From assembly GCA_963719425.1 (NCBI GenBank), contig OY970382.1:522880-586879 (forward strand): a DNA stretch of 64,000 nt. The letters run 5' to 3'. Within the stretch, counting starts at the first letter, position 1. Each line of letters starts with the position of its first letter. Below are positions 4,204 to 48,128 of the stretch, one piece after another. The notes under the pieces are model-generated. The model worked only from the letters and a program-made list of their open reading frames with translations, was not told the DNA's origin and ran no database searches. The DNA comes from an uncultured bacterium. GTDB taxonomy: Bacteria; Patescibacteriota; Minisyncoccia; UBA6257; 2-01-FULL-56-20. Position numbers and translations under genes: made by a program.

Positions 4204-4254
4204 AGTTTCTGAAAAAACACTGATCCGATCAGTGTTTTTTCATGGCGGGAAAAC

Positions 4255-4348: not shown

Positions 4349-5140
4349 ATGCCAAAAACTAAACCACCAGAACATCGACAGGCCAATCTTTCCTATGAGC
4401 AGATGAAGGTAGCTATACCCAAGATAGAGCGTCGCATTACAGAAGTGGAAGCGTTACTCACAGAAACCATTACTGATCCAAGCGATATAAGAATAAGCGC
4501 TCTTGAAAGTAAGTTAGACACCTTTCTTGCTGATACATTCGGAGCCGATACGTTTGAATATGAAAGGTATCGAGGAGATTTGACGAGATTATCTTCTGGA
4601 TTCTGGTATGAAGGTAGGCCACCGCAAGAATTTGCCGATGACCATCATAAAAACTTAGAGACCGCAAGGGCTCAATTGATGGCAATAAAATCGGGCTTTG
4701 AAGAGACACTTGAAGATGCCGGGGAAACTTCGGCTGGCAAATCCCTTAAGGCTTATGAGGGGCTGGAACTACATCCGGCCATCGAGCGAGCGGCGGGCAA
4801 GCTCTTTAGAGACGGCCATTATGCAAATGCAGTTGAAGATGCAGCAAAAGCCCTTAATGCCCTAGTCAGGATGAATAGCGGAGAAGAAGGTAAAGATGGA
4901 TCAGCTCTTATGGAATTCGTTTTCAGCCCCAAAAACCCCATTTTGAAGTTTAACGATCTTAAAAACGATTCCGATCTCGACGAGCAGAGGGGCTTCATGC
5001 TGTTGTTTTCGGGGGCAGTCGCAGGCCTTCGTAATCCCAGAGCTCATAAAATAATAAAAGATGATCCGGAGATGGCGCTCGAATTTATTGCGTTGATTAG
5101 TCTCCTCGCCAAGCTGGCAGATAGGGCTAAGAAGATCTGA
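4349..5140 (+). CDS. TIGR02391-like (hypoth_ymh) family protein; this family is commonly linked to restriction/abortive-infection cassettes
   Basis: The C-terminal ~120 aa (LHPAIERAAGKLFRDGHYANAVEDAAKAL ... GLRNPRAHK ...) match my recollection of the TIGR02391 consensus, including the RNP-AH motif. Confidence 0.45.
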   Translation: MPKTKPPEHRQANLSYEQMKVAIPKIERRITEVEALLTETITDPSDIRISALESKLDTFLADTFGADTFEYERYRGDLTRLSSGFWYEGRPPQEFADDHHKNLETARAQLMAIKSGFEETLEDAGETSAGKSLKAYEGLELHPAIERAAGKLFRDGHYANAVEDAAKALNALVRMNSGEEGKDGSALMEFVFSPKNPILKFNDLKNDSDLDEQRGFMLLFSGAVAGLRNPRAHKIIKDDPEMALEFIALISLLAKLADRAKKI

Positions 5141-5161
5141 TTATAAAGCTGCAACACGCGC

Positions 5162-5323
5162 ATGAAGACACTTACCAAGCTCTACCCCACCCTCTCCCCC
5201 GCCGAGCTTCAAGAAGCCGAACACAACTTCCGGCGGTATCTTGAGATCGCGATAGCCGTGGCGCAAGAACAAGTCGAAGCCAACGCAAATCAGGCAATGG
5301 AAGATCACGGGCAGGACACATAA
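5162..5323 (+). CDS. Small conserved ORF copy A2 (53 aa; MKTLTKLYPTLSPAELQEAEHNFRRYLEIAIAVAQEQVEANANQAMEDHGQDT)
   Basis: Paralog of 3896..4054. A TTGCCG half-site follows at 5324-5329. Confidence 0.35.
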   Translation: MKTLTKLYPTLSPAELQEAEHNFRRYLEIAIAVAQEQVEANANQAMEDHGQDT

Positions 5324-5414
5324 TTGCCGATACTAAATCTCCATAAAATGAGGGAGCCGGTAACCTGAAAAGGTTACCGGCTTAAGAACTAATCCCCGTA
5401 CATCTTTCTCGCAC

Positions 5415-5762
5415 CTAGGCTGCCGGGATATTCCAGCGCCAGTCAGTGCTATCGTGAGGAGCCCAAGGGTTGAGGTCAATGAGGACATCAGCCCGGTAGC
5501 CAGCGGCACGACGCGCCCGACGGACAACTTTCTCGACGTGAGGGATAATCCCGTAGATCATCCTTGCCTGCCGATGGGTCTTCACGGGACCGTCGAAAAA
5601 CGAGGGGCCGTGGACACTGACGCGGATACCATCCTCTCCGAACCGCACTTGATACGTAAAGGGGGCTTTGATTTTCTCAAATCCGCGTTGCACTGCCCTC
5701 CCGATCGCCTTCGCTGCTGGGCGAAGATACTCCTCCGACTGGTAACGAGGAAAATACAACAT
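5415..5762 (-). CDS. Hypothetical protein (115 aa)
   Basis: Open frame inside the island with no recognisable motif. Confidence 0.35.
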   Translation of the reverse strand: MLYFPRYQSEEYLRPAAKAIGRAVQRGFEKIKAPFTYQVRFGEDGIRVSVHGPSFFDGPVKTHRQARMIYGIIPHVEKVVRRARRAAGYRADVLIDLNPWAPHDSTDWRWNIPAA

Positions 5763-5941
5763 GTCACACCTCCAACTCCCGCCTGTCCTTATGGATCAGG
5801 TGCCATGCGTCATGGATATGTTTTATAGAGTTAGAACAACGACGCCTGTTAACTTACTGATAGTATTATAGCATACATAGATAATACTTGTCAAGTATCC
5901 GTTTGATGCGCTGATAAACTGGGGATTTATAGAGGGGATGA

Positions 5942-6004
5942 GGCCTACTCAAGAAGCAGCCAACACAAACCACACGATTGCAAATCGCGATAGAGAGGAA
6001 TAAT
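5942..6004 (+). pseudogene. Degraded third copy of the small conserved ORF (C-terminal remnant ...QEAANTNHTIANRDREE*)
   Basis: Translation is homologous to the C-termini of A1/A2. It sits directly before palindrome P5 and repeat R3. Confidence 0.3.
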
Positions 6005-6127
6005 TGCCGGATGCGACAAATTATCCAGCCTTCCTTTCCCCGTCTGAGGAACTATTCTTAGATTGTTCTTTCAGTTCGTGTAACGTTTGTTCCCAGGTTC
6101 GACAAGTCCCCCGATTGGGTCTACGAG
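5996..6127. repeat. ~130 bp repeat R3 (copy of 4049..4178), containing palindrome TTGCCG-gatg-CGaCAA at 6004..6019
   Basis: Direct comparison with R1. One mismatch in the palindrome arm. Confidence 0.7.
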
Positions 6128-18971: not shown

Positions 18972-19283
18972 TCCGGCGTAGCTCAATGGTAGAGCGGCTC
19001 CCTGTCAAAGAAGGCAGCGCGCACTGGAAACGGTGCGATGAACATCTCGGGATAACGGTGAAGGCTAACCCGCAAGGCATGCGAACACCGTGGGAACCCC
19101 AGCCGTAAATGTGCGTTGCGCGCAGTTACGGCTGGGGACTCCGTAGAGACTAGATACCGAGACGCCTAATGTCCACTTTTCGGTTTTCGTGGGCGACGGC
19201 GATGATATAGTCCACGCCTTTTGGAAACATTGGGATTACGTGTAAGGAGATGGTTCCAGGTTCGAGTCCTGGCGCCGGAGCCA
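18972..19283 (+). tRNA. Intron-containing tRNA, most likely tRNA-Asn(GUU); group I intron in the anticodon loop
   Basis: 5' exon TCCGGCG-TA-GCTC-AATGGTA-GAGC-G-GCTCC-CTGT. 3' exon TAA-GGAGA-TGGTT-CCAGG-TTCGAGT-CCTGG-CGCCGGA-G-CCA. Perfect acceptor pairing. A U|...G| splice junction with an IGS GGCAG pairing to CUGU favours a loop of CUGUUAA. Splicing after U33 would instead give UGU (Thr). Confidence 0.6.
19006..19242 (+). ncRNA. Group I intron (~237 nt, no ORF) inside the tRNA anticodon loop
   Basis: Conserved core elements seen directly: R-like GUAGAGACUAGAUA (19150-19165) and S-like GAUGAUAUAGUCC (19201-19213) forming P7. Terminal G before the 3' exon. Candidate P1/IGS GGCAG near the 5' end. 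Several stable hairpins. Confidence 0.6.
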
Positions 19284-20769
19284 GTAGTTGGATTGAATGG
19301 GTTTTATTAAAATTTTCACGCGCGGAGCGAAGCTCCGCGTATGTTGTAGTGGGGATAAACTCGACACGGCGGTTTTTAAGAAAGAGGTTCGAGCCGAAAA
19401 TTTTCTGCAGGGATACCTTCTTCAAACTTAGGTCGTCATTGGTCACCGCTTCGGTGAGTAATGACGCGTCTTTTACCCATTCCCGCATAGGTTCGAGCCA
19501 AGCACAAACGTCCCGTCCCAAACGGGCAATCTGCTCCTCTAGAGTCTTCTTCTCTGACATAAGGACACAACGACGCTCAAGATAGGCGTCGCGCTCAATA
19601 TCTTGGGCGATATATATGTCGGTTAAGCGTTCCAACTGGCGGTCTATGTCCTTAACCTGCTCGCGCAGGGTTTGGATCGCGCGGGAGGCAACGCTTCCTG
19701 CTTTCTGTTCATCCTCTTTCATCCTCTGCTCATAGTATTCGACAAAAATCGGCGGCATGACGTATTGGGACAAGAGCGTGGAAAGATCGGCGGCGAGAGT
19801 TTCTTCGCGGACGTAGGGTTGTAAACATCGAACCGCCGACTTTTTGGTACAGCGATAATAGACGTAGCGGTGGACGTTTCCATTCTTTTGTTTTTTAATC
19901 CGCTCCTCGGCAGTGATCGCCATATGGCACTCGCCGCACGTGAGCAAGCCGCACAACGCTTGCGGGTCCTTCGTCGCAGTCTGCGGGTGGCCGCGCTTCA
20001 CGATAATTTTCTGCACCTTATCCCAAAGCCGCTTCTCAATGATCGGCGTATGTTTGCCTTCAAGCAGTTCTCCCTTGTAGACGAAATGGCCGTAGTAGAA
20101 CGGATTGGTGAGAATGAACTTCACGCGGTCTTCGTGCATCTCGTTGCCGTACAGACTTTTTACGCCGTTCTCGAACAGGAACTTGCCGATGTCTTGAATA
20201 CGGGAATTGCCCTTCGCATACAACTCGAAGGCCGCCCGTATGACGGGGGCCTTCTTCTTGTCCACGACAATCAACCTCGTGCGCGGATTGTTGAGATAGC
20301 CAACAGGAGCTGTACCAGGAAACTCGCCGCGCTTCGCTTTCTGCCGCAATCCCCGCGCCGTATTGGAACTCAGATCGCGGATATACTGGTTCGCCATTCC
20401 GAATTCGACGGACATCAAAAGTACGTTGTCGGCGGGATAGTAGCTTCGATCGTAGGCCTGAATGTGTGCTATCGTCCCACTTTGCAAGAGCCACTGGATT
20501 TGTGCCGCGTCCACTGGATTACGAGCTAAGCGGTCGATTTTCCAACAGATAATACCTTGGGCTTCGCCCGCGTTTATACGGGACATCATCTCATTAAATA
20601 TGGGACGGCCAGGAATTTTAGCCGTTTGTCGTTCCTCGAACTCCGCGACGATATTCAATCCTTCCTTCTTGGCAAGCTTATGCAAGACGGCAATCTGATC
20701 TTCAATCGAATGGACTTGCCTGTCCTTATCGTCGGTTGATTTGCGAGCATAGAGAAAATAGGTGGTCAT
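19150..20769 (-). CDS. Large serine recombinase (resolvase catalytic domain + recombinase domain + zinc ribbon); C-terminal ~90 codons overlap the IR and the tRNA/intron, so the true end is uncertain
   Basis: N-terminal YARKSTDDKDRQVHSIEDQ (catalytic Ser region) and the zinc ribbon CGLLTCGECH ... YYRCTKK. The reading frame continues through the tRNA 3' exon to a TAG inside intron element R. Confidence 0.75.
   Translation of the reverse strand: MTTYFLYARKSTDDKDRQVHSIEDQIAVLHKLAKKEGLNIVAEFEERQTAKIPGRPIFNEMMSRINAGEAQGIICWKIDRLARNPVDAAQIQWLLQSGTIAHIQAYDRSYYPADNVLLMSVEFGMANQYIRDLSSNTARGLRQKAKRGEFPGTAPVGYLNNPRTRLIVVDKKKAPVIRAAFELYAKGNSRIQDIGKFLFENGVKSLYGNEMHEDRVKFILTNPFYYGHFVYKGELLEGKHTPIIEKRLWDKVQKIIVKRGHPQTATKDPQALCGLLTCGECHMAITAEERIKKQKNGNVHRYVYYRCTKKSAVRCLQPYVREETLAADLSTLLSQYVMPPIFVEYYEQRMKEDEQKAGSVASRAIQTLREQVKDIDRQLERLTDIYIAQDIERDAYLERRCVLMSEKKTLEEQIARLGRDVCAWLEPMREWVKDASLLTEAVTNDDLSLKKVSLQKIFGSNLFLKNRRVEFIPTTTYAELRSARENFNKTHSIQLLAPAPGLEPGTISLHVIPMFPKGVDYIIAVAHENRKVDIRRLGI
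19280..19417. repeat. Inverted repeat IR-L (138 bp), begins at the tRNA CCA end and covers the last ~45 codons of the recombinase
   Basis: Reverse complement equals 22972..23109 with one mismatch (checked base by base). Confidence 0.85.
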
Positions 20770-21037
20770 AGGCTTTGTTCCTTTATAACAAGATAGAATA
20801 ATAAAATCAAGAGCAATACCTATTTTCAGGCTTAATTACTGGATAATTCACCCATTTCTAGGAATAAGATTATATTGGTGAAAAGGAACACGACGATTAA
20901 TAACACCTATAAATACCGTGTTTACTCATCAATCTCAATGCTAACCACTAGCATTTACTGTACGGGGCTTGCAAGTAATCGCTAACTATGCTAGGGTCAT
21001 AAGTGCCGAGAGCCATCGGCCTTAATCAATTCAAACT

Positions 21038-21454
21038 ATGCCAAAACAACACGACATACTAAAGAAACTTTTTACGGATGATTCTGAGGTCAATCCTGAA
21101 GAACTCTTTAAGCTATTATCCCCTTTTGTCAGAATAAATAAAAAGAGTAAGGAGGTGGTTTTCTTAGACGAGGCTCATAAACAATCTGTAAAAAATAAGA
21201 TCGTCCTTTTCTTATTAGCCAAGAAGGTACTCTTTTTATTAGGTGAAGCTGATACCGATCACGTTCAACCTAAGATTATTATTAAAGAATCTGGGATGCC
21301 AAGAGGGACCGTGCTACCGACATTGAAATCTCTTCGCGATAGTAAAACTGGCTCTTTCGTAAGCACTGAAGACGGTTCTTACTATATCTCCAGTTATCAG
21401 ATCGCCAAGATAAAAGAAAAAAACATTTTTAAGAACCATGAAAAAGACAAATAA
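21038..21454 (+). CDS. Hypothetical protein (AT-rich segment)
   Basis: ORF in a compositionally distinct low-GC block. Confidence 0.4.
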   Translation: MPKQHDILKKLFTDDSEVNPEELFKLLSPFVRINKKSKEVVFLDEAHKQSVKNKIVLFLLAKKVLFLLGEADTDHVQPKIIIKESGMPRGTVLPTLKSLRDSKTGSFVSTEDGSYYISSYQIAKIKEKNIFKNHEKDK

Positions 21455-21785
21455 AGAAATCATTGATCAGATAAGAGTTCTACTGAATGAGCTAGAGGGA
21501 TCGAAGCCCAGAGAACTGAACGCCCAGACTCATCATGCTAAGCAAACGATGAAGATCGGAAGGATTCCGACGGGCTGTATAGGTGCTATCCAGACATTAG
21601 TCGATGAGGGATTCTTAGATGAACTCCGAACTGTCCAGCAGGTTGTCGTAAAACTCAGGGAAGAAGGACAACCCTACAGCAGAGCATTAGTCTCTATGAA
21701 CTTATTGAATTTAGTGAAGCCTCCTCGGAAATTACTCCGACGCGTTAAAGATCAAGATCAGTGGCAATACATACTTAGAAAATAA
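21438..21785 (+). CDS. Hypothetical protein (AT-rich segment)
   Basis: ORF overlapping the previous stop by 17 nt, suggesting an operon. Confidence 0.4.
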   Translation: MKKTNKEIIDQIRVLLNELEGSKPRELNAQTHHAKQTMKIGRIPTGCIGAIQTLVDEGFLDELRTVQQVVVKLREEGQPYSRALVSMNLLNLVKPPRKLLRRVKDQDQWQYILRK

Positions 21786-21787
21786 AC

Positions 21788-22183
21788 ATGGCCAATCAAC
21801 TTAAAGACATACTAGACCGACTGACTAGATTAGAGGAGGTGGTGTTTGGTAACAAAGAGAAACCCGATAGTAAATTAAAGATACCAAATAAGAAAGGCAG
21901 ACTAGATTTCTCTCTTAACGAGAGAGCCTTTCTAAAAAAATACTTCTTTAAGTTTAATGGTCAACAAACATTCGCTTTAATTTGCGCTGCCTTATCGAAG
22001 GGAAAAACGGACACTCCAATCAATCTCTCGGGTATAAAGAAGACTTGGAAAAATTGCCAAGGAATCATTAAGTATCCATACAGTTCTATCTACTCTACCA
22101 GAGCGAAAGAGAACAATTGGGTTGTTCCAGGAAATAAGGCTACCTATTCGATTCGGCCTTCGTGGATAGAAATATTTAATTAA
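21788..22183 (+). CDS. Hypothetical protein (AT-rich segment)
   Basis: ORF tightly packed with its neighbours. Confidence 0.4.
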   Translation: MANQLKDILDRLTRLEEVVFGNKEKPDSKLKIPNKKGRLDFSLNERAFLKKYFFKFNGQQTFALICAALSKGKTDTPINLSGIKKTWKNCQGIIKYPYSSIYSTRAKENNWVVPGNKATYSIRPSWIEIFN

Positions 22184-22187
22184 TCCG

Positions 22188-22964
22188 ATGACAGAGGAAG
22201 AAGCTATCAAAAATGTATTGATCAAGGTCTTCCCTGCCAAGCACATTACCTCCGCGCTCGAACACTTCTCAGAGGCAGAGACAAAGTACCAACAGGAGGA
22301 TTGGGAAAAATCCTTATTGAGAAGTGGCAAGTTTATCGAATCAACATTAAAAGCCTTGTACGTTTATGCTGGTAAAACATTGCCGCCTAGTCGGCAATTT
22401 AAGGTCAGCACGGTCATTCAACAATTAGGACAACTTAGTAATAGCTACGACGACACTATCAGGCTAACCATCCCTCGTAGCTGCTCTTTCATTTACGATA
22501 TAGTTAGCAATCGAGGTGCGCGGCACGATTCAGACGATTTTGATCCAAATAAGATGGACGCTAGTGTTTCGATACCAACAATTTCATGGATATTGTCTGA
22601 AATGATCCGTTTCGCGAGTCAAACATCGCCGAGTAACGATGACGTTACTTCATTCACTGAGAGTCTGATGGAGAAAAAACATCCCCTATTTGAAACGATA
22701 GATGGCAGAATCTATGTTAACCACAAAGGATTGACTCCAAAGGATTTAGCCCTACTACTCTTATACGCGTACTATCCTAAAAGAATATCGCGAAAGGAAC
22801 TAACAGATTCTATAGAGAGGCATGGCAACTTTACCAGAAATGCAATTGCTATCGCGCTAACGAATATCAAAGACTTGGTTGATGATGACGGGACTGGTAA
22901 TTGGAAACTTCGTGAAATCGGCAGAGCTAAAGCCGCGCGGATATTAAATACATTACACTCATAG
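22188..22964 (+). CDS. Hypothetical protein (AT-rich segment)
   Basis: 258 aa ORF with no motif recognised. Confidence 0.4.
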   Translation: MTEEEAIKNVLIKVFPAKHITSALEHFSEAETKYQQEDWEKSLLRSGKFIESTLKALYVYAGKTLPPSRQFKVSTVIQQLGQLSNSYDDTIRLTIPRSCSFIYDIVSNRGARHDSDDFDPNKMDASVSIPTISWILSEMIRFASQTSPSNDDVTSFTESLMEKKHPLFETIDGRIYVNHKGLTPKDLALLLLYAYYPKRISRKELTDSIERHGNFTRNAIAIALTNIKDLVDDDGTGNWKLREIGRAKAARILNTLHS

Positions 22965-22971
22965 TTTATAA

Positions 22972-23109
22972 GGTATCCCTCCAGAAAATTTTCGGCTCGA
23001 ACCTCTTTCTTAAAAACCGCCGTGTCGAGTTTATCCCCACTACAACATACGCGGAGCTTCGCTCCGCGCGTGAAAATTTTAATAAAACCCATTCAATCCA
23101 ACTACTGGC
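22972..23109. repeat. Inverted repeat IR-R (partner of 19280..19417); on the + strand it encodes ...KVSLQKIFGSNLFLKNRRVEFIPTTTYAELRSARENFNKTHSIQLL then ASSYESTRTYFARNLS*
   Basis: Direct comparison. It would provide an alternative, stop-terminated 3' end for the recombinase if the segment inverted. Confidence 0.85.
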
Positions 23110-23149
23110 TAGTTCGTATGAGTCCACTCGTACCTATTTTGCCCGAAAT

Positions 23150-23520
23150 TTGAGCTGATTTACCCCATCATTCACCCCATCATTCGGGTATACTCGGAAT
23201 GATGGGGTAGGAAACCGAAATGCCCCCGTATATGCTCGCTTTTCTGTCGCACCGCCTCACAAACCTCAGACCCTACTTCACTCCGGTTTACCCCTACGTT
23301 CACCCCTACGTTCGGGATATGCCGGAACGTAGGGGTATGAAGTCTCAATCTCCTTACAAACGTTGGGATTTTTGATCCTCGCCGTTCAAAACTGGAAGTC
23401 CTACTTCACTCCGTTTCTGCCCTACCCAAGTGGTGTGCTCAGCCCCTCAGCCGCTCGCTGCTGCTCGGGCTTCGGGGCTTCGCGTATGGCGCGCCCAAAT
23501 TCCTCCCCCACAAAATAGCT
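23150..23520. repeat. Left arm of a ~400 bp imperfect inverted-repeat pair; contains two doubled-arm hairpin modules (23166-23215 and 23290-23340), three ctacttcactccg motifs and a 74-bp block (23436-23509) perfectly mirrored at 26465-26540
   Basis: Reverse-complement comparison with 26430..26800. Confidence 0.75.
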
Positions 23521-23571
23521 CACGGCCGCATGGCCGAGAAAATTAATAAAGATGTAAAATGTAGATGAATC

Positions 23572-25956
23572 ATGTCCAAACTAACAAAACAACAAAGACG
23601 TTCGAGAAGGAAGAGGCGGAAAGATAAGAAACGCAGAGAGAAACGCCTAAGCAGCAAAAAGACTAGGCAAAAAGCCGAGCCGTGGGTTCCTGTAAAAATG
23701 AAAATGTTTGAATTCCCCAATCCATTTCCCTCAAATGTCCCACAAGAGAAACGTTTGGAGATAATCAGATCGATAGGGGCAAACGCTAAAAGGGAGTTTG
23801 ATTTGAAATATCCAAAGATCGAAGAGTGGTTTAAAAAGTATGATCCCTTATATCTATTATCTTTTTGTCTTACTTATTTCGCATCAACACCAGAAGGAAT
23901 AGACCCAGAGGCTACTGGAGAAATGGACTTCTTTCCGTTCTATATAGAAATTATGCAAGCATTTGCGTTATATCAGGAGAGGAATTACTCTCCTAACCCC
24001 CTTTTCGGCGATGCTTCTGTTTTGAATAAAGAAATCAAAGAAATTGGAGAGCTTATGAGCGTAAGATTGATAGACATTCCTAAGGATCTAAAGACTGATG
24101 AAGAAATCCTTGCCTATAAATTAAGGACTGAAATGATGATGCAAACAACAGCTGTGAGGAATTGGGCATATTTTCATCAAATGAAAAGAGTCTCCTTGGC
24201 GTTGGCTAGTAAGATTGATAGTGATTTTAAAAAAAGCTTTGGCATCGGATCTTCTGATTTGATGAAGCTATTATTTAAACTTTCTGAAGAAAGAAATGAC
24301 TTATTAAACGACCATCTGGATAGAGTAAGAAGTTTTATAAATAAGCCTGATTATAAAGAAATAATGGAGGCGTACAACCAAGCATTCCCATCTAACAAAC
24401 GAATTGAGGCGAATGAAATGGAAGAACTCTGGAACAAAGCTGGCAAGAATAAGAAACATTTGACCGAGATGCTAATTTGCCACGCTGATTTAAAGTTGGA
24501 GAATATTTACTCTTTCACGGTAGACCATGCACTATCTCTCCTCGATGGAAATATAACCAAAGAAACTCTTAAAAATATCCTAAAAAAACTTTCTTACAAT
24601 TTTGGGGGGCTGAAAGATTTTAATAAAGAGCACATTATTCTTAGCAATCCAGTGCACAGTAAACCATTCATTAAGATTGATGAGGAAAAGTTCTATTCCG
24701 CAATTTGGGTGATATTGCCGCACCTTACATTAGACCTACTAGAAGATTTTGTCTGGGAAGATGAGGATCTTCGAGAAAAATATTCTGATATAAGATCGAA
24801 ATATCTGGAAGATGAAATAGTCAAGCTTTTTAAGAGTAATTTTCCGAATGGTACAGTTAGCAGGGGCAGTCTTTGGAAAAGTGGAATTCTTGGAAGGGAG
24901 TATGAAAACGATCTCACTCTTACTATTGATACATTCGCCATTGTAGTTGAAGCGAAATCTCAGAAATTAAGCGATCCGGCCAAACGGGGCGCACCCAAAA
25001 GATTGTTCGAAACCCTTAAAGAGTTAATAGAAGAACCATCTGAACAGGCTTTGAGATTTATAGATTATTTACAAAAGAATAAAAAGGTTCATGCATTTAA
25101 AAATAAACACGGAGAAACCAATACCATCGACAGCACCAAAATTAAGTATTACGTACCTCTCGGAGTAACTTTCTCTCATTTGGGTATGATTGGAAGTAAC
25201 TTAAAGAAACTGATTGAAGCCAAAGTCACAGACAAGCCTCTCGAAAAACTGGCTCCATCCATAAATTTTACCGACCTTGAAGGGGTCTTTGAGTTACTCC
25301 CGCTAGAAGCGGAGAAGATTCACTACCTAGCGAGAAGAAGAGAATTTGAAGCTCACGTTGAATACGATGGCGATGAGTTAGATCTTCTGGCCCTCTATCT
25401 CGAAAACGGATTCAATATCGGAGTTGCTGAGTACGACAAGAAGCATGTCTTCTTTCTTGGCATTAAATCAAAAGAATTAGATCCATATTTCATTGGAATA
25501 AACGAAGGAAGGAAGATCGCTAAACCAGAATTTGCTATGACTCAGTGGTGGAAAGATCTACTGACTACTATTTCTATGAGGAAATTTGATGGTTGGATAG
25601 AAACTTCCTTTGTTTTACTTAACAGCACCAAAGAAGATCAGGAGAAGTTTGAGGCGGGATTAAAAGAACTAATGGGACGCATTAAATCTGGGAAGGTTGA
25701 GAAGCCTCATAATTGGGTAGCTTTTATAACGGGGCCGGAAAGACGGCGATATGCAATTATTGGATATCCATATACCACTTCAGACAAAGAACTACGCGAT
25801 ACAATAATGTCTGAGGCAATTGACGGATCCGAAAAAGAGCACAAGGACATTCGAGGGATTGTGGTAATAGGAATAGACATGAATCATGCCAACTATCCTT
25901 ATAGTGTCTTCGCGCGAAGATTATCCACAAATCTTTTTGATACACTCACGCTTTAA
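23572..25956 (+). CDS. Large hypothetical protein (794 aa), extremely basic N-terminus (KQQRRSRRKRRKDKKRREKR...), possible PD-(D/E)xK-like motif (TIDTFAIVVEAKS)
   Basis: Single long ORF at ~35-40% GC. The nuclease-like motif is a weak visual call only. Confidence 0.45.
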   Translation: MSKLTKQQRRSRRKRRKDKKRREKRLSSKKTRQKAEPWVPVKMKMFEFPNPFPSNVPQEKRLEIIRSIGANAKREFDLKYPKIEEWFKKYDPLYLLSFCLTYFASTPEGIDPEATGEMDFFPFYIEIMQAFALYQERNYSPNPLFGDASVLNKEIKEIGELMSVRLIDIPKDLKTDEEILAYKLRTEMMMQTTAVRNWAYFHQMKRVSLALASKIDSDFKKSFGIGSSDLMKLLFKLSEERNDLLNDHLDRVRSFINKPDYKEIMEAYNQAFPSNKRIEANEMEELWNKAGKNKKHLTEMLICHADLKLENIYSFTVDHALSLLDGNITKETLKNILKKLSYNFGGLKDFNKEHIILSNPVHSKPFIKIDEEKFYSAIWVILPHLTLDLLEDFVWEDEDLREKYSDIRSKYLEDEIVKLFKSNFPNGTVSRGSLWKSGILGREYENDLTLTIDTFAIVVEAKSQKLSDPAKRGAPKRLFETLKELIEEPSEQALRFIDYLQKNKKVHAFKNKHGETNTIDSTKIKYYVPLGVTFSHLGMIGSNLKKLIEAKVTDKPLEKLAPSINFTDLEGVFELLPLEAEKIHYLARRREFEAHVEYDGDELDLLALYLENGFNIGVAEYDKKHVFFLGIKSKELDPYFIGINEGRKIAKPEFAMTQWWKDLLTTISMRKFDGWIETSFVLLNSTKEDQEKFEAGLKELMGRIKSGKVEKPHNWVAFITGPERRRYAIIGYPYTTSDKELRDTIMSEAIDGSEKEHKDIRGIVVIGIDMNHANYPYSVFARRLSTNLFDTLTL

Positions 25957-25968
25957 TAACAAGAGGGC

Positions 25969-26346
25969 TTAGTTTTTGAATTTTTCCAAAATCAGCCCAA
26001 CCAGCCAGTAGCAGAATCGGTAGAGCACGAAAGTGAGCACGTCAAAATAGGGATTGAAAATGATTCCCCATCCTGCTATCCAGATGATGATTGCCAGAAT
26101 CCCAAAAAAGAATATGTGGTAGAGCAGACTGCCGAGCATACCCGTTTCTCCTAGCAGGGCTTTTACCGAAGCGAGAACGAGAAGGAAGAAAAGGCCTCCG
26201 ACTATCCACGGCAGATAAGGCACTGAAGCACGCAGAGTTGCGGTGGCGACAGTTTGGAATATGAAGGTGCCCATTTCCGTTGAGGAGGCCAGAATCCTTT
26301 GGCCTAAATCCGGCGGTAGCTTGATAACTGGCAGGGTCGAGGTCAT
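25969..26346 (-). CDS. Small integral membrane protein (125 aa, 4 TM)
   Basis: Hydrophobic ORF convergent with the 794 aa gene. Confidence 0.4.
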   Translation of the reverse strand: MTSTLPVIKLPPDLGQRILASSTEMGTFIFQTVATATLRASVPYLPWIVGGLFFLLVLASVKALLGETGMLGSLLYHIFFFGILAIIIWIAGWGIIFNPYFDVLTFVLYRFCYWLVGLILEKFKN

Positions 26347-26429
26347 TTCAAGCCAAACATAAGCCAGTAGGACGATAAGGTCAAATCAAGCGTAGTTTCA
26401 TAGAAAACCACCTATTCAGAAAGATGTTG

Positions 26430-26800
26430 AGCTACCACCCTCGGGCGCGCCAAAAGGAGGGGTTGGGGGAGGAATTTGGGCGCGCCATACGCGAAGCCCC
26501 GAAGCCCGAGCAGCAGCGAGCGGCTGAGGGGCTGAGCACAGACCCGTTTAGGGGTATTGTCGGGGGTCAGGGTTTTCGAGAAAAGCGAGGTCTTGTAAGG
26601 GCAGAAGGCCGTCAGGGTAGTCAATCGTGATTGACGGGGTGATTGACTAGGTAAACCGGAGTGAAGTAGGACTTTGGATTTTGTCCGGCGAAACTCAAAA
26701 AGCCCAGCGTTTGCGGGGCGATCTGGACTTGCTACCCCTTCATTCCGAGCATACCCGAATGAAGGGGTGAATGAAGGGGTAAAACAATCAGGAATTTGCC
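26430..26800. repeat. Right arm of the ~400 bp imperfect inverted-repeat pair; contains one doubled-arm hairpin module (26737-26790) in inverted orientation
   Basis: See the left arm. Hairpin loop CGAGCATACCC is the reverse complement of left-arm loop GGGTATACTCG with one change. Confidence 0.75.
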
Positions 26801-27014
26801 ATAAAATACGCTTGGATCTGCTCATACAAGCGAGCAGTACTGGACTTTGAGAGTACAAATCGAATAAATCGCTAAGTTTCATGCGCTTTCTGTGGTCATG
26901 TCACTATTAGACCACACGGATCATTAAAAAATTCTAAAATCCGAGCCTTGCGAAAACCCGTTTCAGGAACATGTCAGGTAGAATAATTGACGTCTGATCC
27001 GACATAAGCGTACC

Positions 27015-27533: not shown

Positions 27534-28652
27534 CTATAGACCAACCGAGTTAGCCCCATACTCTGCTTGTGCTTGCGTGAATTTGTCGTACTCCAACTGT
27601 GCAATGAGACTGCCGCGTGAAAAAGCGGAATACGACATGTACTGTTGCGCCGCTTTAGCCGCTTCGTCATTCCAGTTGGCTCCAGAATTATCTGCGCCAT
27701 AAACTGCTTGAGATTGTGTAAATTGATCGTGCACCAATTGAGCAACCAGCCCATCGTGAGAAAATGCCGTGTAGCTCAAATAAGATTGTGCCGCCTTAAT
27801 CGCCTGTGCGTTCCAGTCGGCGCCAACGTTATCCGCACCGTAAACCGCGTCAGACTGTGAGAATTGATCGTGCACCAATTGAGCAACCAACCCATCATGA
27901 GAAAATGCTGTGTAGTTTAAGTAAGACTGCGCCGCCCTAACCGCGTTCTGTTGGCTAACCGTTTCGTTTGATGCGGCTGATGTATTTTGACTGTTTGTTT
28001 GTTCAACTTGGGTCGGCGGCGGACTAGAAACGGTAATTATTCCGCTGCAAACCTGATTCATCGATTGGCTTCCCGAAACGATCTTCACGCTTGCACCCTT
28101 CGTACCCGTGGTCGAATACGTGAGCGACGTTGATTTTCCAGTACCGGATAGTCCGTCTGTTCCAGACCAAGAATACGAGTAACTACCGGTTCCTCCGGAG
28201 GCCTGAACTACCCATATCCCCGTCTGACCAGTGGTGAGGGTACTTTGTGCAGGAGAACATGTCGCGGAAATCGCCGGTGTCGGTGTCGGCTGTGGAGCAG
28301 TTGTTTGAGTCGTTTGATTTGGTGCAGCCGCATCGGTAACCGTTTTATTAGGCGTTGGCGTTTGCTGCGGAACGTTGGTGACTACAGGAGCCGAGGTGGT
28401 TGCAGTAGTTGACGCCGAAGGAACTGTTGCCGATTCGTTCGCGACTTGCTGGTTGGAATTTTCTACTGGGGAATTGCTTGTGGGGGTAGATGGGCTCGTG
28501 ACACCGATCAAAATAAAGAAAACTATTATTGCGCCGCCGAAAAGGAATCCGGCTTCCCTGCGGGATCGGAGCTTCAAAGACGAGGGCTTGCTAAGGCCCA
28601 CGATAAAACCAGCGATTGAAACGAGTAAGAGAAGGAAGAATAGACTGGTCAT
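27534..28652 (-). CDS. Membrane-anchored S/T-rich protein with three tandem Ltp-family-like repeats (host cell surface-exposed lipoprotein / superinfection-exclusion type)
   Basis: Three copies of AAQSYL-YTAFS-DGLVAQLVHDQF-QS-AVYGAD, matching the Ltp repeat pattern (SYL.YS.FSR.GL..QL.FD.F...A.YAV). N-terminal TM helix. Confidence 0.5.
   Translation of the reverse strand: MTSLFFLLLLVSIAGFIVGLSKPSSLKLRSRREAGFLFGGAIIVFFILIGVTSPSTPTSNSPVENSNQQVANESATVPSASTTATTSAPVVTNVPQQTPTPNKTVTDAAAPNQTTQTTAPQPTPTPAISATCSPAQSTLTTGQTGIWVVQASGGTGSYSYSWSGTDGLSGTGKSTSLTYSTTGTKGASVKIVSGSQSMNQVCSGIITVSSPPPTQVEQTNSQNTSAASNETVSQQNAVRAAQSYLNYTAFSHDGLVAQLVHDQFSQSDAVYGADNVGADWNAQAIKAAQSYLSYTAFSHDGLVAQLVHDQFTQSQAVYGADNSGANWNDEAAKAAQQYMSYSAFSRGSLIAQLEYDKFTQAQAEYGANSVGL
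27560..27960. repeat. Three ~123-bp tandem DNA repeats encoding the Ltp-like repeats
   Basis: Direct nucleotide-level repetition visible in the sequence. Confidence 0.7.
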
Positions 28653-43807: not shown

Positions 43808-45457
43808 CTAGTGCTGGTAAAACCCGCGGGCGACGGCGTCGGGAATCATAATGAGCGGGACGCCGTACTTTGCGCACATGGCTTTTACGTCGCCGTCTTT
43901 CACCGAGCCGCTTGTGGCAAGAATGGCTTTGATGCCCGCCTTCGCAAGCACTTCGGGACCGTCGGGGAACGGGAAGAAGCTGTCGCTGTAGGCAGCCGCG
44001 CCCGCAACCTCGTGGCCGGCGTCCTTCGCGCGCTTGATCGCGAGCTCACAGCAGCTTACCCTGTCCTGCTGGCCCACGCCGTTGCCGATGAGCTGGTTCC
44101 CCATGACGAGCGTGACGGTGTTGCTGTTGCTCGTTGAGCCGATCGCCCACGCGAGGAGAAGATCATTTTCTTGTTCCGGCGTGCAATTGCCATTCCGCTC
44201 CACACGGGGATCTTTGAGGTCCAGGACAAACGCGTAATTCGGCTGGGTGAGAAATCCGCCGCGCACGGCGCGAAATCTTGTTTCATAGTTCAGGCTGCCT
44301 GCGGTGAGCGAGCCGAGTGCCGCGTTTTCCAAGAGGCGGCACTTCCCGCCTTTCCGCGCAAGGAGTTCCACTGCCTCAGGCGCAAAGCTCGGCGCGACGA
44401 CGCCGTCCAAGAGCCGCCTTGCACCCGCGGGCATTTGCGCGTGGATAAGCGTTTCGGCGACCGCTCCGTCAACGGGAAACATTAGCATCACAAGTCCGCC
44501 AAAAATGGCGCGAAGGTCGCCCGAAAGCATATTTTTTATAACTTCGGTCGGATCGTTTCCCACTGCCGCGCCGCAGGGATTGCCGTGCTTTACGCCGACC
44601 GCGATGTGCGGGACCTTTTTGCGGTTCACGTCAAATACGGCGGCAATATGCGTCGCGGTCTGAAGCATACGATCCACATCACAAAGATTGTTATAGCTCA
44701 GCGCGTCACCGGCGACGGTGCGGAACCGGAAAAGCGCGAGTGGATCGCCGCCCGCATCTTGTGCCGTGCCAGTCGTGCCCACCGTGCCCGTTGAATCCGC
44801 TGTAATTTCCGTCGCATAGAGCGCCGCCGGCGTCTGCCAGGCATTCTCCCCATATTTGCACGTGAGAACGCGCGACCCGATAAAGCCGTCAAACTGCCCG
44901 CCGCTCCGATAACGGCTTGCGGTCAAACAATATTCGGCGACAATCGCGTCGGCTTTCGCATTAAGTTGATCAATGAATTTTTCCCTGTCGGGATATCCTT
45001 TATCAATCCACTCTATGACCTTCGCGCGGTCGGCGGGATCGGAGATGACGATGCGCTCCCCTTTTGCAGCGGAGTGCAGCATGGTCGGGCCGCCCACGTC
45101 CGTCATCTCTATGACTGAAGCGCGCGTGCTGCCTTCTTTTGCGATCGCATCATGCAAGGGATAAAGATCAACGCAAACAAGGTCAATGCGCGGGAGCCCG
45201 AGCCGTTTCAGTTCCTCTTCGTCTTCGGGAATATTCCGCGCGAGAAGCCCCGCATGGATCTGTCGCGACAACGTGACTACGCGATGCCCCAGGATCGGCT
45301 CGCCCACGATATCACCCACGTCCCGCACCGCAACGCCCGCTTCGCGGAGCGCCTTCGCCGTGCCGCCCGAGGCGAGGATCTGCCACCCGCGCGAAACCAA
45401 ATCGCGCGCGAATTCAACGACTCCCTCCTTGTGATACACAGACAGCAACGCGGTCAT
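43808..45457 (-). CDS. purH: Bifunctional AICAR transformylase / IMP cyclohydrolase
   Basis: N-terminal MGS-like ALLSVYHKEGVVEFARDL ... ASGGTAKAL and the C-terminal AICARFT domain. Confidence 0.85.
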   Translation of the reverse strand: MTALLSVYHKEGVVEFARDLVSRGWQILASGGTAKALREAGVAVRDVGDIVGEPILGHRVVTLSRQIHAGLLARNIPEDEEELKRLGLPRIDLVCVDLYPLHDAIAKEGSTRASVIEMTDVGGPTMLHSAAKGERIVISDPADRAKVIEWIDKGYPDREKFIDQLNAKADAIVAEYCLTASRYRSGGQFDGFIGSRVLTCKYGENAWQTPAALYATEITADSTGTVGTTGTAQDAGGDPLALFRFRTVAGDALSYNNLCDVDRMLQTATHIAAVFDVNRKKVPHIAVGVKHGNPCGAAVGNDPTEVIKNMLSGDLRAIFGGLVMLMFPVDGAVAETLIHAQMPAGARRLLDGVVAPSFAPEAVELLARKGGKCRLLENAALGSLTAGSLNYETRFRAVRGGFLTQPNYAFVLDLKDPRVERNGNCTPEQENDLLLAWAIGSTSNSNTVTLVMGNQLIGNGVGQQDRVSCCELAIKRAKDAGHEVAGAAAYSDSFFPFPDGPEVLAKAGIKAILATSGSVKDGDVKAMCAKYGVPLIMIPDAVARGFYQH

Positions 45458-45491: not shown

Positions 45492-48128
45492 TCATAATGA
45501 TATATTTAATATCTTCTCTGGCTCTTTTTCTATTTTACTCAATGCTTTCGTCTCTGTTCTACGAGCCTCTTCTGCTATCTCAATATTATTGTCAATCATT
45601 CTCTCCAATCTCACAGTATTCCTTGGAATAGGTATGATGAAATATTCTTTCAGGTATTCATCGTTCAGCTCCCTTTGTGTGTAACCGCTTGCAAGGTGGC
45701 GGAATTGCTTTTGAACCAACTCCGATCTAAAGAGTGCCCAAAGGAGAAATGCCTCTTTCGGGTTCTTCGGTCTTATCCCGTAGAACCCGCTACTTCCTAG
45801 TTCTCCGTCGAGATGTTTCGGTATAACCACAACTTTTTTAAGCGATCTATATGGTTTAGAAAACAATAAATCGTTTTCCTTAAGAAGCAATTTTGCTCTA
45901 TCGGGGAGGAATTCCCTCATTCCTTCTTGTAATTCGTCTTGATCAACAACACCCCTCTCCTTGTTTAAGTTCCCGATTTCAATATATTTATATACTTTGT
46001 CCTCATCTTTCTCCTCTTTGCTTATATTTTTTATCTTCTCAAAATCTTCGAGTTTTTTAATGGTGCATTTTCCTTGTTTCTCTCGCTCCCTTAATGCGAC
46101 TAAAAGTTGCCGATAGCTCGGTTGATGGAAAAAAACATCGAATCTATCGGAAATGGAATCGGGGCTCATCAAGAAAAGATCATCGTCTTCATAATCCCCA
46201 ATCCGAACACTTCCGTTTTTATAGAGTTTTCCGGTTTCTTCATATTTTCTATACTCTTTTAAGACACTTTCAAAGTCATCATGTTTTTCTTCTTTGCCGG
46301 ACTTCGTATGGCCGATATTTTCTACGTATCTTGCGAACACATGGGGTTGTTGTTGCTCACCTCCCTTTCTTTTTTCAAGATAGAGAATTGAAGTGATGCC
46401 TCCTGCTTCCTGATTTACAAATGCATGAGTTGGAAGTTGGAAAACCGCTTTCACCAAAAACTTCTCCCTTATAAAATCTCTGTATTCTCTGTTAGAGTCG
46501 CTGTTCAAGACAGAGTTATCTAAGATAATAAACATTCTTCCCCCCTCTTTAAGAAAATCCACATAGCGAGCCACAAATAAGACATTCGACTGGACTGAAG
46601 GTTTTAATTCATTTGTTCCCTTTTTATATGCTATCTCTCCATATTCTTCCAAGACGGTTTTTTCGTCTTTGTCTTTTGTTTGATAGTGCATACTGAAAGG
46701 AGGATTAGTAAGCACTACGTCGAAGCGTAATTTCCCTTCATCCAGTTTCTGTTTCAACTCTTCAAGTTCTCTTTTGGTTTCTTGATGCGTCCCTTTTGAG
46801 ATAAGCAGATTTTTGTCGAGTGAATCCGCACAGTATATTCTGCTCCCTCCATCTCCGTGAACATACATGTTCATTCGAGCAATCCGAGAGATTTTCGGAT
46901 TTGCTTCTATGCCAAATAAACTTTCCATCTTGATGTTGTTGATTATCTCTTCCTTCCTGTCTCGAAGCGATTTATTATCTTTGATTTTTTCTACCAAATC
47001 TGCCATGGCATCAATTAAGAATCCTCCGCTTCCACAACACGCATCCAATACCAGTTCGCTTCGCATCATATTTCCATCCTTGATTATTTTCAAGTCCGCC
47101 AATTTAGTCATGAACTTTACAATTTTTCTCGGAGTGAAATATTGACCGAGTTCTCTCCCTCTTATAGTCGCGTTAAGGAACGTCTCAAACATTCTGCCAT
47201 TCAAATCCTCGTCAATCATGTAAAGATCATAATTCTGTAAAACCCTTACTACTTCCCTAATGGTAGGGGACTTAAGGTCAATTTCTTCGTCTTTCTGGAA
47301 GATTGATTTCTTCTTATTTTTCTCAACTTGCTCTTGGAGGTCTTTTCTAAGTTCTGAAAAAAGAATTGAACTTACGGGATTCTCTGTCTCGGTCTCTCTT
47401 TCATCTATCCAATCAATTGAAAATTTGAAATCTGATCTCTTTGGGGTCTGTTTCTTATCTATAATATTCCTGATTCTCTTATCCTCGTTTAACTTCACAA
47501 AAATTATTTTTGAGAACTCATAAAAAGCATCCGTAGGGCTGATTTTCTCTTTCTTCCAAATGATATTATGACACTTGTTAAACGAGGCCTTGACTTCTTC
47601 AACTGATGGCCTGCTTAAAAATATCTCTATGGAAAGTTCGTTTTTTCCCGATCGCTTTTCAATGTTTTCCGCAGAAAGTAAATCTATCAACCGTTTAAAC
47701 TCTTCGTTCCCGCGAGAGAAATCTTCAAATGAGAGCTTGACTATTGCCTCCTCTTCGTCCCAATTGTAAACCTTTAGAGATTTCCCGTTTGTCAATACGG
47801 CAAAACGTACAGGATTTTCACCCTTGAACCTTTTATTTAGTTCGAGGGCATATCCCGAAACTTGGTACGTATAATCATCTATAATTTCCGTTGGGGATTT
47901 TGCATCAATAACAATTTTTGGTTTGCCATCACTAAAAAGAACGTAGTCTGGCTTATATTTTTCTTTCTTCGATCCCTTACTGATTACAAGTTCATCTAGG
48001 GATGTTTTTGTTTTTATAAATTTCTCGTCATAGCCTAAATGCTTTATGAGTTTTATTGCAAAGAACTGCTCAACATCACTCTCGTTTTTTAAGGTGTCGA
48101 GGTTACAAAACAAGTTCTTCTTTTCCAT
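45492..48128 (-). CDS. Type IIG-like single-chain restriction-modification enzyme (N-terminal PD-(D/E)xK endonuclease + N6-adenine methyltransferase), AT-rich
   Basis: N-terminal KPDYVLF ... IVIDAKS (HsdR_N/Mrr-like). MTase motif I LDACCGSGGFL and motif IV NPPFS. 878 aa at markedly lower GC than the flanking pur genes. Confidence 0.7.
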   Translation of the reverse strand: MEKKNLFCNLDTLKNESDVEQFFAIKLIKHLGYDEKFIKTKTSLDELVISKGSKKEKYKPDYVLFSDGKPKIVIDAKSPTEIIDDYTYQVSGYALELNKRFKGENPVRFAVLTNGKSLKVYNWDEEEAIVKLSFEDFSRGNEEFKRLIDLLSAENIEKRSGKNELSIEIFLSRPSVEEVKASFNKCHNIIWKKEKISPTDAFYEFSKIIFVKLNEDKRIRNIIDKKQTPKRSDFKFSIDWIDERETETENPVSSILFSELRKDLQEQVEKNKKKSIFQKDEEIDLKSPTIREVVRVLQNYDLYMIDEDLNGRMFETFLNATIRGRELGQYFTPRKIVKFMTKLADLKIIKDGNMMRSELVLDACCGSGGFLIDAMADLVEKIKDNKSLRDRKEEIINNIKMESLFGIEANPKISRIARMNMYVHGDGGSRIYCADSLDKNLLISKGTHQETKRELEELKQKLDEGKLRFDVVLTNPPFSMHYQTKDKDEKTVLEEYGEIAYKKGTNELKPSVQSNVLFVARYVDFLKEGGRMFIILDNSVLNSDSNREYRDFIREKFLVKAVFQLPTHAFVNQEAGGITSILYLEKRKGGEQQQPHVFARYVENIGHTKSGKEEKHDDFESVLKEYRKYEETGKLYKNGSVRIGDYEDDDLFLMSPDSISDRFDVFFHQPSYRQLLVALREREKQGKCTIKKLEDFEKIKNISKEEKDEDKVYKYIEIGNLNKERGVVDQDELQEGMREFLPDRAKLLLKENDLLFSKPYRSLKKVVVIPKHLDGELGSSGFYGIRPKNPKEAFLLWALFRSELVQKQFRHLASGYTQRELNDEYLKEYFIIPIPRNTVRLERMIDNNIEIAEEARRTETKALSKIEKEPEKILNISL

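Follow-up and report, generated by a model that had tools for sequence, protein, structure and literature searches.

The window analysed here, by which we mean the whole stretch of 64,000 nucleotides taken from contig OY970382.1 of an uncultured member of the Patescibacteria, contains at positions 23150-26800 a 794-aa protein and a small membrane protein enclosed by long imperfect inverted repeats, hereafter the left and right arms. We consider it probable, though by no means secure, that this region, lying at the outer end of an integrative island of ~7.6 kb (~19279-26839), serves as its cargo slot, and that the island, which encodes a large serine recombinase (LSR), occupies the 3' end of an intron-containing tRNA-Asn gene. 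Read outward from the tRNA, the island would comprise attL, the recombinase segment, an internal intact att copy with the left arm, the cargo slot, the right arm and attR; its two unique segments, namely the recombinase with a set of small open reading frames (ORFs) and the cargo slot, would be parted by a long inverted repeat. The repeat flagged in the initial annotation would then be the arm part of one long inverted duplication that takes in the recombinase 3' end, the att core, a tail, a link and the arm itself. That annotation had entertained two interpretations: a recombination-site-flanked cassette, which comes close to the truth in that each arm is joined to a copy of the serine recombinase att core; and a non-autonomous or novel transposon, which does not hold up against the evidence weighed further on.

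The LSR, the sole recombinase found, displays the Resolvase (PF00239), Recombinase (PF07508) and Zn_ribbon_recom (PF13408) domains, all above threshold, and its encoded C-terminus (…IQLLA/PAPGLEPGT…, the slash marking the junction) is the translated reverse complement of the tRNA, whose 3' end (…GGCGCCGGAGCCA) is the integration target. The tRNA/island junction, attL, reads …CCGG/AGCCAGTAG/TTGG at 19279, and the internal attP, at 23102, has an identical reading on the opposite strand. At this internal position, an inverted duplicate of the recombinase 3' end (IR1b) and the tail codons that follow it appear to form an intact attP-like site. Under the model, the att core would fall within the LSR frame, ~16 codons ahead of the natural stop; downstream of the core would come the tail codons with a terminator and a short link, then hairpin units of ~128 nt, either one or two in number (X-X-loop-X' plus CCTACTTCACTCCG), and finally an inner block. 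The island would hold two inverted copies of this whole post-core stretch, the distal one (the right arm) ending at attR and the proximal one (the left arm) being preceded by the inverted duplicate of the last ~47 LSR codons.

On the strength of its conservation, we take the LSR tail to be truly coding: its peptide, Y-x-x-x-R-x-Y-F-x-x-N, is retained after the duplicate in the related loci L040, L041, L044, L045, L046 and L047, and the same peptide follows the intact recombinase gene in L049. Likewise, most of 119 database recombinase homologues end in a tRNA-derived G[LFVI]EP read-through, and eight end in the tail; six of these eight have a partner of 90-93% identity that reads into a tRNA, with the alignments stopping at the same residue. 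The conserved tail and the paired recombinases together lead us to conclude that the att core lies inside the LSR ORF, and that integration therefore replaces the tail. At the other end, attR reads …AAGCG/AGCAGTA/CTGG at 26833, and it is this evidence for an outer junction at the right arm that sets the span of the island given above. We also considered a decayed recombinase gene beyond the right arm, but similarity to the recombinase there is confined to ~20 nt next to the core, and we read this stretch instead as the host half-site.

With regard to the tRNA, the two halves of which we read from the sequence, the insert in the anticodon loop matches the group I intron family RF00028 of Rfam over 18991-19234 at a score (22.5 bits, E 0.023) that is below gathering. 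ARAGORN calls a tRNA-Asn in L048 and L045 and misses the interrupted gene of the window. The 3' half of the window tRNA shares 90-98% identity with the ends of the tRNAs of L047, L048 and L049. Further, the syntenic relative L047 appears to carry the same interrupted tRNA.

A scan of metagenomes with a degenerate module pattern (TACCCCNNNNTTCACCCCNNNNTTCGGG) returned eight loci, seven of them genuine. Four of the seven (L040, L042, L044 and L045) encode LSR homologues 52-75% identical to that of the window; L038 and L040 represent the two termini of a single element (100% identity), L041 shares arms and neighbouring genes with L045, and L039 has a single unit adjoining a tRNA and an apparent remnant of a recombinase 3' end. 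Loci fetched via recombinase homologues carry the same units (L046, 81%; L047, 72%; L049, 86%), and in every fetched locus the modules adjoin a recombinase element. Viral contigs gave no match for the module pattern or for the recombinase.

At least seven related elements from metagenomes repeat the layout of the window. The order tRNA, core and recombinase 3' end, followed farther along by the inverted 3'-end copy, core, tail, link and arm, is found in the window, L040, L044, L045, L046 and L047, and involves three tRNA targets: tRNA-Asn (window, L045 and L047), tRNA-Gln (L046) and tRNA-Leu (L044). Within a genome the inverted 3'-end repeats measure 95-174 nt and are 85-100% identical, though the recombinases differ by up to 48%. 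Core junctions equivalent to attL are present at tRNA-Asn, tRNA-Gln and tRNA-Leu in L045, L046 and L044, respectively. On the distal side, the junction reads …GGCATACAAGCCC/AGCCAGTA/TAAAAC… in L038 and …AAGCCCAGC/ATCAG… in L041; in the window as in L038 and L041, the core is where homology to the tail comes to an end, and in the latter two unrelated DNA begins at that point. A different division, in which the tail, link and arm are host DNA and the island is bounded by IR1 alone, was rejected on the grounds that the same stretch follows elements at tRNA-Asn, tRNA-Gln and tRNA-Leu; for the tail, it is additionally ruled out by the conserved peptide and by database recombinases whose real C-terminus it forms.

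Among these elements the LSR segment occurs in either orientation, the window representing state A and L049/L050 state B. In the latter isomer, tRNA-Asn is followed by an orphan inverted 3' end (115 nt, 100%), an ATPase and a helix-turn-helix (HTH) gene, and the recombinase with an intact tail; beyond it come link, unit and block, and then genes for GmrSD, MvaI/BcnI and a methyltransferase (MTase). One isomer would deprive the recombinase of its own tail: in the window the recombinase is fused to the tRNA reverse complement, and in L049 it retains the tail. We envisage an excised circle with two att copies, from which the isomers might arise either by integration via one or the other copy or by later inversion between the copies. 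The island model further predicts that an empty tRNA-Asn site would read …GGCGCCGGAGC(CA)GTACTGGACTTTGAG…; no empty target site was seen among the fetched loci, the syntenic relative L047 being occupied as well, and no synteny was found for the right-hand border of the island, L047 being syntenic on the tRNA side only.

The slot itself takes different defence genes in different elements. In the window it holds the 794-aa nuclease and the membrane protein. In L041 it holds an N6_N4 MTase, DpnII and a 180-aa ORF, all inside a 313-nt perfect inverted repeat; in L040/L038, the same MTase as in L041 with a MutH/Sau3AI-like nuclease and two ORFs. The genes beside the arm in L049 are the GmrSD, MvaI/BcnI and MTase genes already mentioned. 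The search proposed at the outset for such repeats around other cargo in other genomes thereby found its object in L041 and L040/L038; the repeats are not restricted to this genome, and the enclosed protein does not belong to a housekeeping family. In some relatives the recombinase segment has defence genes as well, e.g., Mrr in L048, a type I restriction-modification (R-M) system in L047 and, in L049, an AAA_15 ATPase. An apparent cargo inversion between L038 and L040 was discarded, the reverse-complement relation being that of one fixed structure read from its two ends.

The N6_N4 methyltransferases of L040 and L041 share ~89% nucleotide identity and have different partner nucleases. The DpnII and MutH/Sau3AI-like families are both classically GATC-specific. 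The comparison of L040 with L041 suggests that the endonuclease was swapped under a constant methylase.

The arms are indeed inverted repeats built of nested sub-repeats, as first described, and their homology runs further outward than was then thought, to ~23111 on the left and ~26839 on the right. Pairwise alignment of the two is colinear over ~390 nt. A repeat search of the window recovered the perfect inverted block, which measures 77 nt and not 74 bp, along with two imperfect inverted stretches outside it: one of 130 nt at 75% identity (23287-23416 / 26654-26783) and one of 91 nt at 79% identity (23156-23246 / 26696-26786). The 20-mer CTACTTCACTCCGGTTTACC, picked out earlier as a shared motif, has exactly two copies, one at 23273(+) and the other at 26650(-), where 0.00 would be expected in 64 kb; a diverged third copy is found at 23401. 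The predicted hairpin modules are borne out as well: a scan of both strands of the window located only three of the form X-X-spacer-X' (23161-23209(+), 23289-23337(+) and 26733-26781(-)), all within the arms, and there is a degenerate fourth at ~26606-26660. No module is present elsewhere in the window, and the arms do not conform to REP/REPIN (repetitive extragenic palindromic) elements, which are marked by numerous copies dispersed over a genome and by a RAYT transposase.

Each arm is made up of units of ~128 nt, with two full tandem units on the left, and one full and one degenerate unit on the right. Thirteen units from the window and its relatives align well, with the conserved anchors GGTTTACCCC…TTCACCCC…TTCGGG and AAGTCCTACTTCACTCCG; the inner end of the left arm (23493-23542) is 92% identical to the arm of L044. 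Across the 13 units, pairing of the X2/X' palindrome is preserved by compensatory changes at three pairs; none of 500 shuffles reaches the observed score and slid controls collapse. X' is able to pair with X1 or X2 (DNA dG -13.6 to -15.8, z -4.2 to -4.9). The GC (guanine-plus-cytosine) content of the arms is 0.54-0.57, and that of the host flank 0.56. We tried the idea that the module motif is a recombinase half-site: ACCCATTCAATCC in the att site of the window resembles X, but it is not conserved in L044-L047. We propose that the arms are most likely homology handles for cargo exchange between related elements, and that, being rich in hairpins, they most likely also serve to insulate or terminate, or to bind proteins of the element.

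A further palindrome lies inside the 3' coding end of the LSR, ~60 nt before the core (23061-23080, with its inverted copy at ~19310-19330), where the encoded peptide is YA-x-LR-x-AR. Compensatory changes preserve the pairing, the sequences being GCGGAGC-TTC-GCTCCGC in the window, CGCTTCGC-TCC-GCGAAGCG in L044, GCCGAGC-TCC-GCTCGGC in L047 and GCGGC-GTTA-GCCGC in L045. The coding sequence here seems to harbour an element that works at the level of DNA or RNA.

The principal cargo of the window is the 794-aa protein. The K/R-rich N-terminus noted at the outset is real, with K or R at 20 of the first 40 residues, and the protein is basic because of this tail alone: the overall isoelectric point (pI) is 8.6 and that of the rest of the protein 5.9. 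The tail is missing in about a quarter of the homologues. The suspected D...ExK motif is equally genuine, E445, D447, E460 and K462, which lie within YENDL…FAIVVEAKS, being invariant in 27 aligned sequences from several phyla. In an AlphaFold2 model (pLDDT 86, pTM 0.86) the residues of the catalytic motif sit on consecutive strands. The model contains the alpha-beta-beta-beta-alpha-beta core fold by which the PD-(D/E)xK superfamily is recognized, and the catalytic D…(D/E)xK residues lie on strands 2 and 3, as is the case in that superfamily. The modelled structure is that of a restriction-endonuclease fold, and not of a TnsA-type or DDE transposase. Foldseek against the PDB gave no significant whole-chain match, and the large helical N- and C-terminal regions were likewise unmatched; sequence searches of Pfam, NCBIfam, PADLOC (PADLOC-DB 2.0), PHROGs and the PDB gave no match for the protein.

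This protein has a wide following of relatives. The 258 word-index matches are full-length and 45-70% identical, and they are spread over Patescibacteria, Bacteroidota, Omnitrophota, Variovorax and others, with no matches in phages; a profile search recovered 3,291 cluster representatives (50% identity) at E<=1e-3 and 866 at E<=1e-30. The family is a large and unannotated one without a Pfam model, and a member of the restriction-endonuclease-fold superfamily. Homologues occur in contexts such as: (i) the inside of a type I R-M and toxin-antitoxin island; (ii) beside a different large serine recombinase, after smpB; (iii) as a single-gene insertion between yidC and nusA; (iv) on a plasmid of Salimicrobium, in the company of methylases and an endonuclease. 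The GC content of the gene, 0.38, stands against 0.56 for the host. The 794-aa gene is horizontally acquired, defence-type cargo and not a mobilising enzyme; its product is most likely a DNA-targeting, standalone defence enzyme.

Two features of the homologues deserve separate mention. Three of them are flanked by direct, as opposed to inverted, repeats of 40-98 nt with 92-98% identity (L004, 3286-3767/9097-9777; L008, 5732-5829/8990-9087; L022, 5591-5629/8532-8571), which may be the att-type repeats of other islands with the same cargo. More remote members encoded on plasmids bear the label 'SEC-C domain protein' or SecA, those from Streptomyces plasmids (H5-H9) being annotated 'preprotein translocase subunit SecA'. 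The SEC-C zinc motif (PF02810) is present in two close homologues, P0031 and P0113, and the SecA label is probably a misannotation, likely caused by an N-terminal SEC-C zinc motif.

Table 1. Features of the island and its immediate surroundings, in window coordinates.
Feature	Position	Strand	Remarks
tRNA-Asn(GTT)-like gene	18973..19282	+	group I intron-like insert of ~230 nt in anticodon loop
LSR, 539-aa ORF ('state A')	19150..20769	-	past residue ~497 reads into tRNA reverse complement
att core AGCCAGTAG at tRNA/island junction (attL)	19279..19287	+	IR1a/IR1b identity ends and tRNA sequence starts
IR1a, last ~47 LSR codons up to core	19279..19419	-	141 nt, 99% complementary to 22970-23110
Four small low-GC ORFs of recombinase segment ('cargo1' or element genes)	21038..22964	+	138, 115, 131 and 258 aa; GC 0.40
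IR1b, inverted duplicate of LSR 3' end	22970..23110	+	ends in core CTACTGGCT (23102-23110)
LSR tail codons, 16 (SSYESTRTYFARNLS, then stop)	23111..23158	+	overlap terminator-like hairpin 23116-23133; run into left arm
Left (proximal) arm	23156..23545	+	unit L1 23156-23284; unit L2 23285-23412; perfect block 23434-23510
Inner GGCC hairpin of left arm	23523-23536	+	
794-aa nuclease, predicted PD-(D/E)xK / restriction-endonuclease fold	23572..25956	+	K/R-rich N-terminal tail; GC 0.38
125-aa protein, narrow distribution	25969..26346	-	three predicted transmembrane segments; 10 homologues, 51-77% identity
156-aa ORF through right arm, probably no gene	26412..26882	-	frame broken in left arm; no family matches
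Right (distal) arm	26430..26790	-	perfect block 26464-26540
Right-arm units		-	degenerate R2 26541-26657; R1 with module 26658-26790
Diverged link and recombinase-tail remnant (…LYEQIQAYFMANS, then stop); attR	26791..26839	-	ends at core AGCAGTA 26833-26839

The remaining ORFs of the island (Table 1) are less informative. Among the small ORFs of the recombinase segment, the 115-aa one has a homologue in the L040 element and the 258-aa one a weak HEPN match only; searches of Pfam, NCBIfam, PADLOC, PHROGs and the PDB gave the small ORFs no match beyond this weak one. The small membrane protein of the initial annotation stands as a conserved 125-aa ORF with three hydrophobic segments, and a promoter-like site (26384-26356, minus strand) lies ahead of its gene; neither the 125-aa nor the 169-aa ORF was retrieved on any contig when looked up by its exact protein sequence. 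The ORF predicted across the right arm had been thought spurious and probably is: it crosses the non-coding arm, and the similarity to it in L039 and L044 tracks the nucleotide conservation of the arm.

The 9-mer of the att core, AGCCAGTAG, has four copies in the window against 0.11 expected (19279-19287(+), 23102-23110(-), 26003-26011(+) and 26362-26370(+)). The last two are direct repeats that bracket almost the whole gene of the 125-aa membrane protein, and on the minus strand they show an extended similarity of ~18/21 (CTACTGGCT, TAT, GTTTGGCTTGA versus CTACTGGCTGGTTGGGCTGA). A mini-cassette marked by these copies is conceivable, as are scars of pseudo-att sites.

Several points weigh against the island model as we have framed it: (i) the two additional core 9-mers around the membrane gene are not accounted for by it; (ii) it does not predict the patchy identity along the inverted copies of the window, which is 99% at the 3' end, ~56% over the tail and link, 75% over the units and 100% over the 77-nt block; (iii) the variable 4-nt cores of the modules differ inside one genome (ATCA, TACG and TTCA), which is awkward for one single binding protein; (iv) no orientation variant of the cargo slot was seen, L038, L040, L041 and L045 all having one and the same orientation; (v) integration via either att copy and inversion after integration are indistinguishable here; (vi) the long internal duplicate could be a functionless relic kept by gene conversion; (vii) the defence role of the 794-aa protein rests on fold and genomic context only, because the library searches came back empty. 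Further, canonical LSRs are not, to our knowledge, known to carry a duplicated inverted attP or to recombine attP with attL.

A bolder extension of the island model, which we put forward as speculation and hold to be rather unlikely, is that the three att-type sites (at the tRNA junction, internally and at the outer end) delimit two modules bounded by inverted like half-sites. Here the recombinase itself, and not only RecA, would invert or exchange the modules, toggling its own C-terminal tail, and hence locking or unlocking the island, as well as allowing defence cassettes, bounded by the arms with their hairpin units, to be swapped between elements; the X-X-loop-X' modules would be accessory binding sites for the recombinase or a partner. 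As a separate matter, the 794-aa family would constitute a widespread and new defence system of restriction-like type that consists of a single gene.

Of the competing explanations, two retain some force. The arms could be primarily functional RNA or regulatory DNA, such as structured leaders, terminator or insulator modules, or a small RNA gene, placed 5' of two convergent genes, their inverted layout being a by-product. Both arms do lie upstream of the adjacent gene, the module hairpins are strong and supported by the compensatory changes described above, and the inner block keeps a hairpin with a different sequence in L044. Nonetheless, we find this improbable as a full account: folding of the whole arms shows a modest gain only against shuffles (z about -2.1 and -2.2), and an Rfam search gave no match in the arms, the only matches being tRNA-Glu and the sub-threshold group I intron. 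Moreover, in L041 and L040 the gene next to the distal arm has its 3' end towards it, so that the arm is not always a leader, an RNA hairpin does not need the concerted change of the third copy, X1, and the attached recombinase 3' end and att core are left unexplained. As a statement of what the arms do, it is compatible with the island model.

We regard as equally doubtful the possibility that the cassette is an invertible switch, in which expression of the nuclease or the membrane gene changes as the segment is inverted, either by the serine recombinase or by RecA at the perfect 77-nt block. Inverted repeats with a perfect core do adjoin a serine recombinase, the neighbouring recombinase segment occurs in both orientations among related elements (window versus L049), and in several lineages arm identity within a genome is as high as repeated recombination would make it, e.g., 100% over 313 nt in L041. 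However, the arms are symmetric, a flip would leave either gene with an unchanged arm upstream of it, and no outside promoter or ORF fusion would be switched; the uniform cargo orientation across L038, L040, L041 and L045 and the divergence of the outer 300 nt of the arms in the window, down to 75-79%, are also at odds with it.

Far less survives of the proposal that the arms are terminal inverted repeats of a transposon, be it autonomous or a composite of paired miniature inverted-repeat transposable elements (MITEs), with the 794-aa D…ExK protein as transposase or nuclease. What speaks for it are the long inverted repeats directly around the gene, the 45-70% identity of an unannotated nuclease family across phyla, which suggests mobility, and the single-gene insertions formed by some homologues. 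Yet upstream-versus-downstream flank comparison with BLAST found no comparable inverted repeat at any of the 31 other homologue loci (29 from a genome scan, with L002 and L003), the only inverted matches being of 17-23 nt in two of them, and the arms of the window have no similarity to any of these loci. Elsewhere the arms flank unrelated cargo and always accompany a serine recombinase, and the window has one arm pair only in its 64 kb. The target-site duplications that had been suggested as a check are absent outside the arms, where homology between the flanks persists through the link, the recombinase tail and the att sequence and is lost from the att core onward. Together with a predicted fold matching that of restriction enzymes and not that of TnsA-type or DDE transposases, this makes a transposon highly improbable. 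Finally, that the repeat is a chance similarity or an assembly artefact, i.e., a chimeric inverted duplication of the kind metagenome assemblies can create, is scarcely credible: a Logan contig of the same sequence does break inside both perfect blocks, but such breaks are expected at a true inverted repeat, the same architecture was assembled independently in several samples and lineages, the arms of the window are diverged and not identical, and the chance expectation is effectively zero.

Other parts of the window hold further material of note. A second low-GC (0.37-0.38) single-gene insertion, at 45492-48128 (-), encodes an 878-aa type IIG R-M enzyme (N6_Mtase, Eco57I, HSDR_N) and is wedged between purH (43808-45457) and purA (48322-49923). 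Just beyond the outer junction of the island lies a gene, at 27534-28652 (-), for a 372-aa protein with three Ltp-type lipoprotein repeats (PF07553), a family known from prophage superinfection exclusion. The region from 27 to 35 kb has a GC content of 0.50, below that of the core genome, and may be older island material. Three sets of repeats are unrelated to the arms: an intergenic hairpin family, GGAAAAGTTGCCG-loop-CGGCAAC, at 2613, 4041, 4175 and 4241, beside tRNA-Glu; a family of 33-nt intergenic repeats at 29283, 30581, 31535 and 32020; and direct repeats of 155-175 nt at 3906-6124.

Mobile elements and the acquisition and exchange of defence genes are little known in the small-genome Patescibacteria, or Candidate Phyla Radiation (CPR), and this locus and its relatives constitute a recurrent compact platform in that setting. 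If the recombinase acts on these sites, the system would provide: (i) a new coupling of integration state to recombinase structure; (ii) a new mechanism of cassette exchange; (iii) natural att sites for a large recombinase family, which could be useful for genome engineering. Likewise, the 794-aa family, with its restriction-endonuclease core and its presence in defence islands of many phyla, is a concrete candidate for a new single-gene defence system. Compared with type II, IIS and IV restriction endonucleases and standalone PD-(D/E)xK nucleases (N.BspD6I, FokI, HindIII, McrC, Shedu SduA and Can2), it has no sequence-level family membership, and lacks a partner methyltransferase, ATPase or sensor domain.

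The island as a whole invites comparison with several known systems. Serine invertases (Hin, Gin, Cin and Pin) and shufflons resemble it in having a serine recombinase beside segments bounded by inverted repeats, with both orientations present in related elements. However, the invertases are small enzymes that use ~26-bp sites and an enhancer and switch gene fusions or promoters, whereas the family of the window has a large enzyme and repeats of 0.1-0.6 kb, and no flipping of its cargo slot was seen. Integron cassettes (attC) similarly combine variable cargo with bounding imperfect palindromes whose structure is better conserved than their sequence; in contrast, the window lacks the tyrosine recombinase IntI, its elements come in inverted pairs instead of one attC per cassette in direct order, and they have the X-X-loop-X' form. 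CTX-phi, reportedly described by Val et al. in 2005, is said to possess dual inverted attP sites, its single-stranded DNA folding into one XerCD substrate. The likeness, two inverted att sites on one element, is formal only: serine recombinases cut both strands, and a hairpin of this sort would not be a productive substrate for them. The integration-dependent immunity of mycobacteriophages, in which, according to what is reported of the work of Broussard et al. in 2013, attP lies inside the repressor gene, shares the location of the att site near a coding 3' end and the difference in C-terminus between integrated and free forms; there, tyrosine integrases split the repressor, whereas in the window the serine recombinase splits its own gene, and an equivalent functional consequence is not implied.

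The closest parallels are the islands and prophages of LSRs (the phiC31, Bxb1 and A118-type integrases, ccr of SCCmec, and islands that target tRNAs, such as tycheposons, bioRxiv 10.1101/2020.12.28.424599). Taken as a group, they share with the window the Resolvase, Recombinase and Zn-ribbon domains, insertion at a tRNA 3' end, a short core at both junctions and variable accessory or defence cargo. An LSR-type tRNA island with defence cargo is, in that respect, of an already known kind. Literature searches found no description of the present layout. It departs from other LSR islands in that its att core is inside the recombinase ORF, such that integration swaps the C-terminus, and in that a second, inverted copy of the recombinase 3' end, the att site and an arm of ~400 nt is present, the slot being bracketed by the copies. 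These three features, namely a core placed within the recombinase frame, an att region with a conserved duplicate in inverted orientation, and a cargo slot between the duplicates, appear to be hitherto undescribed.

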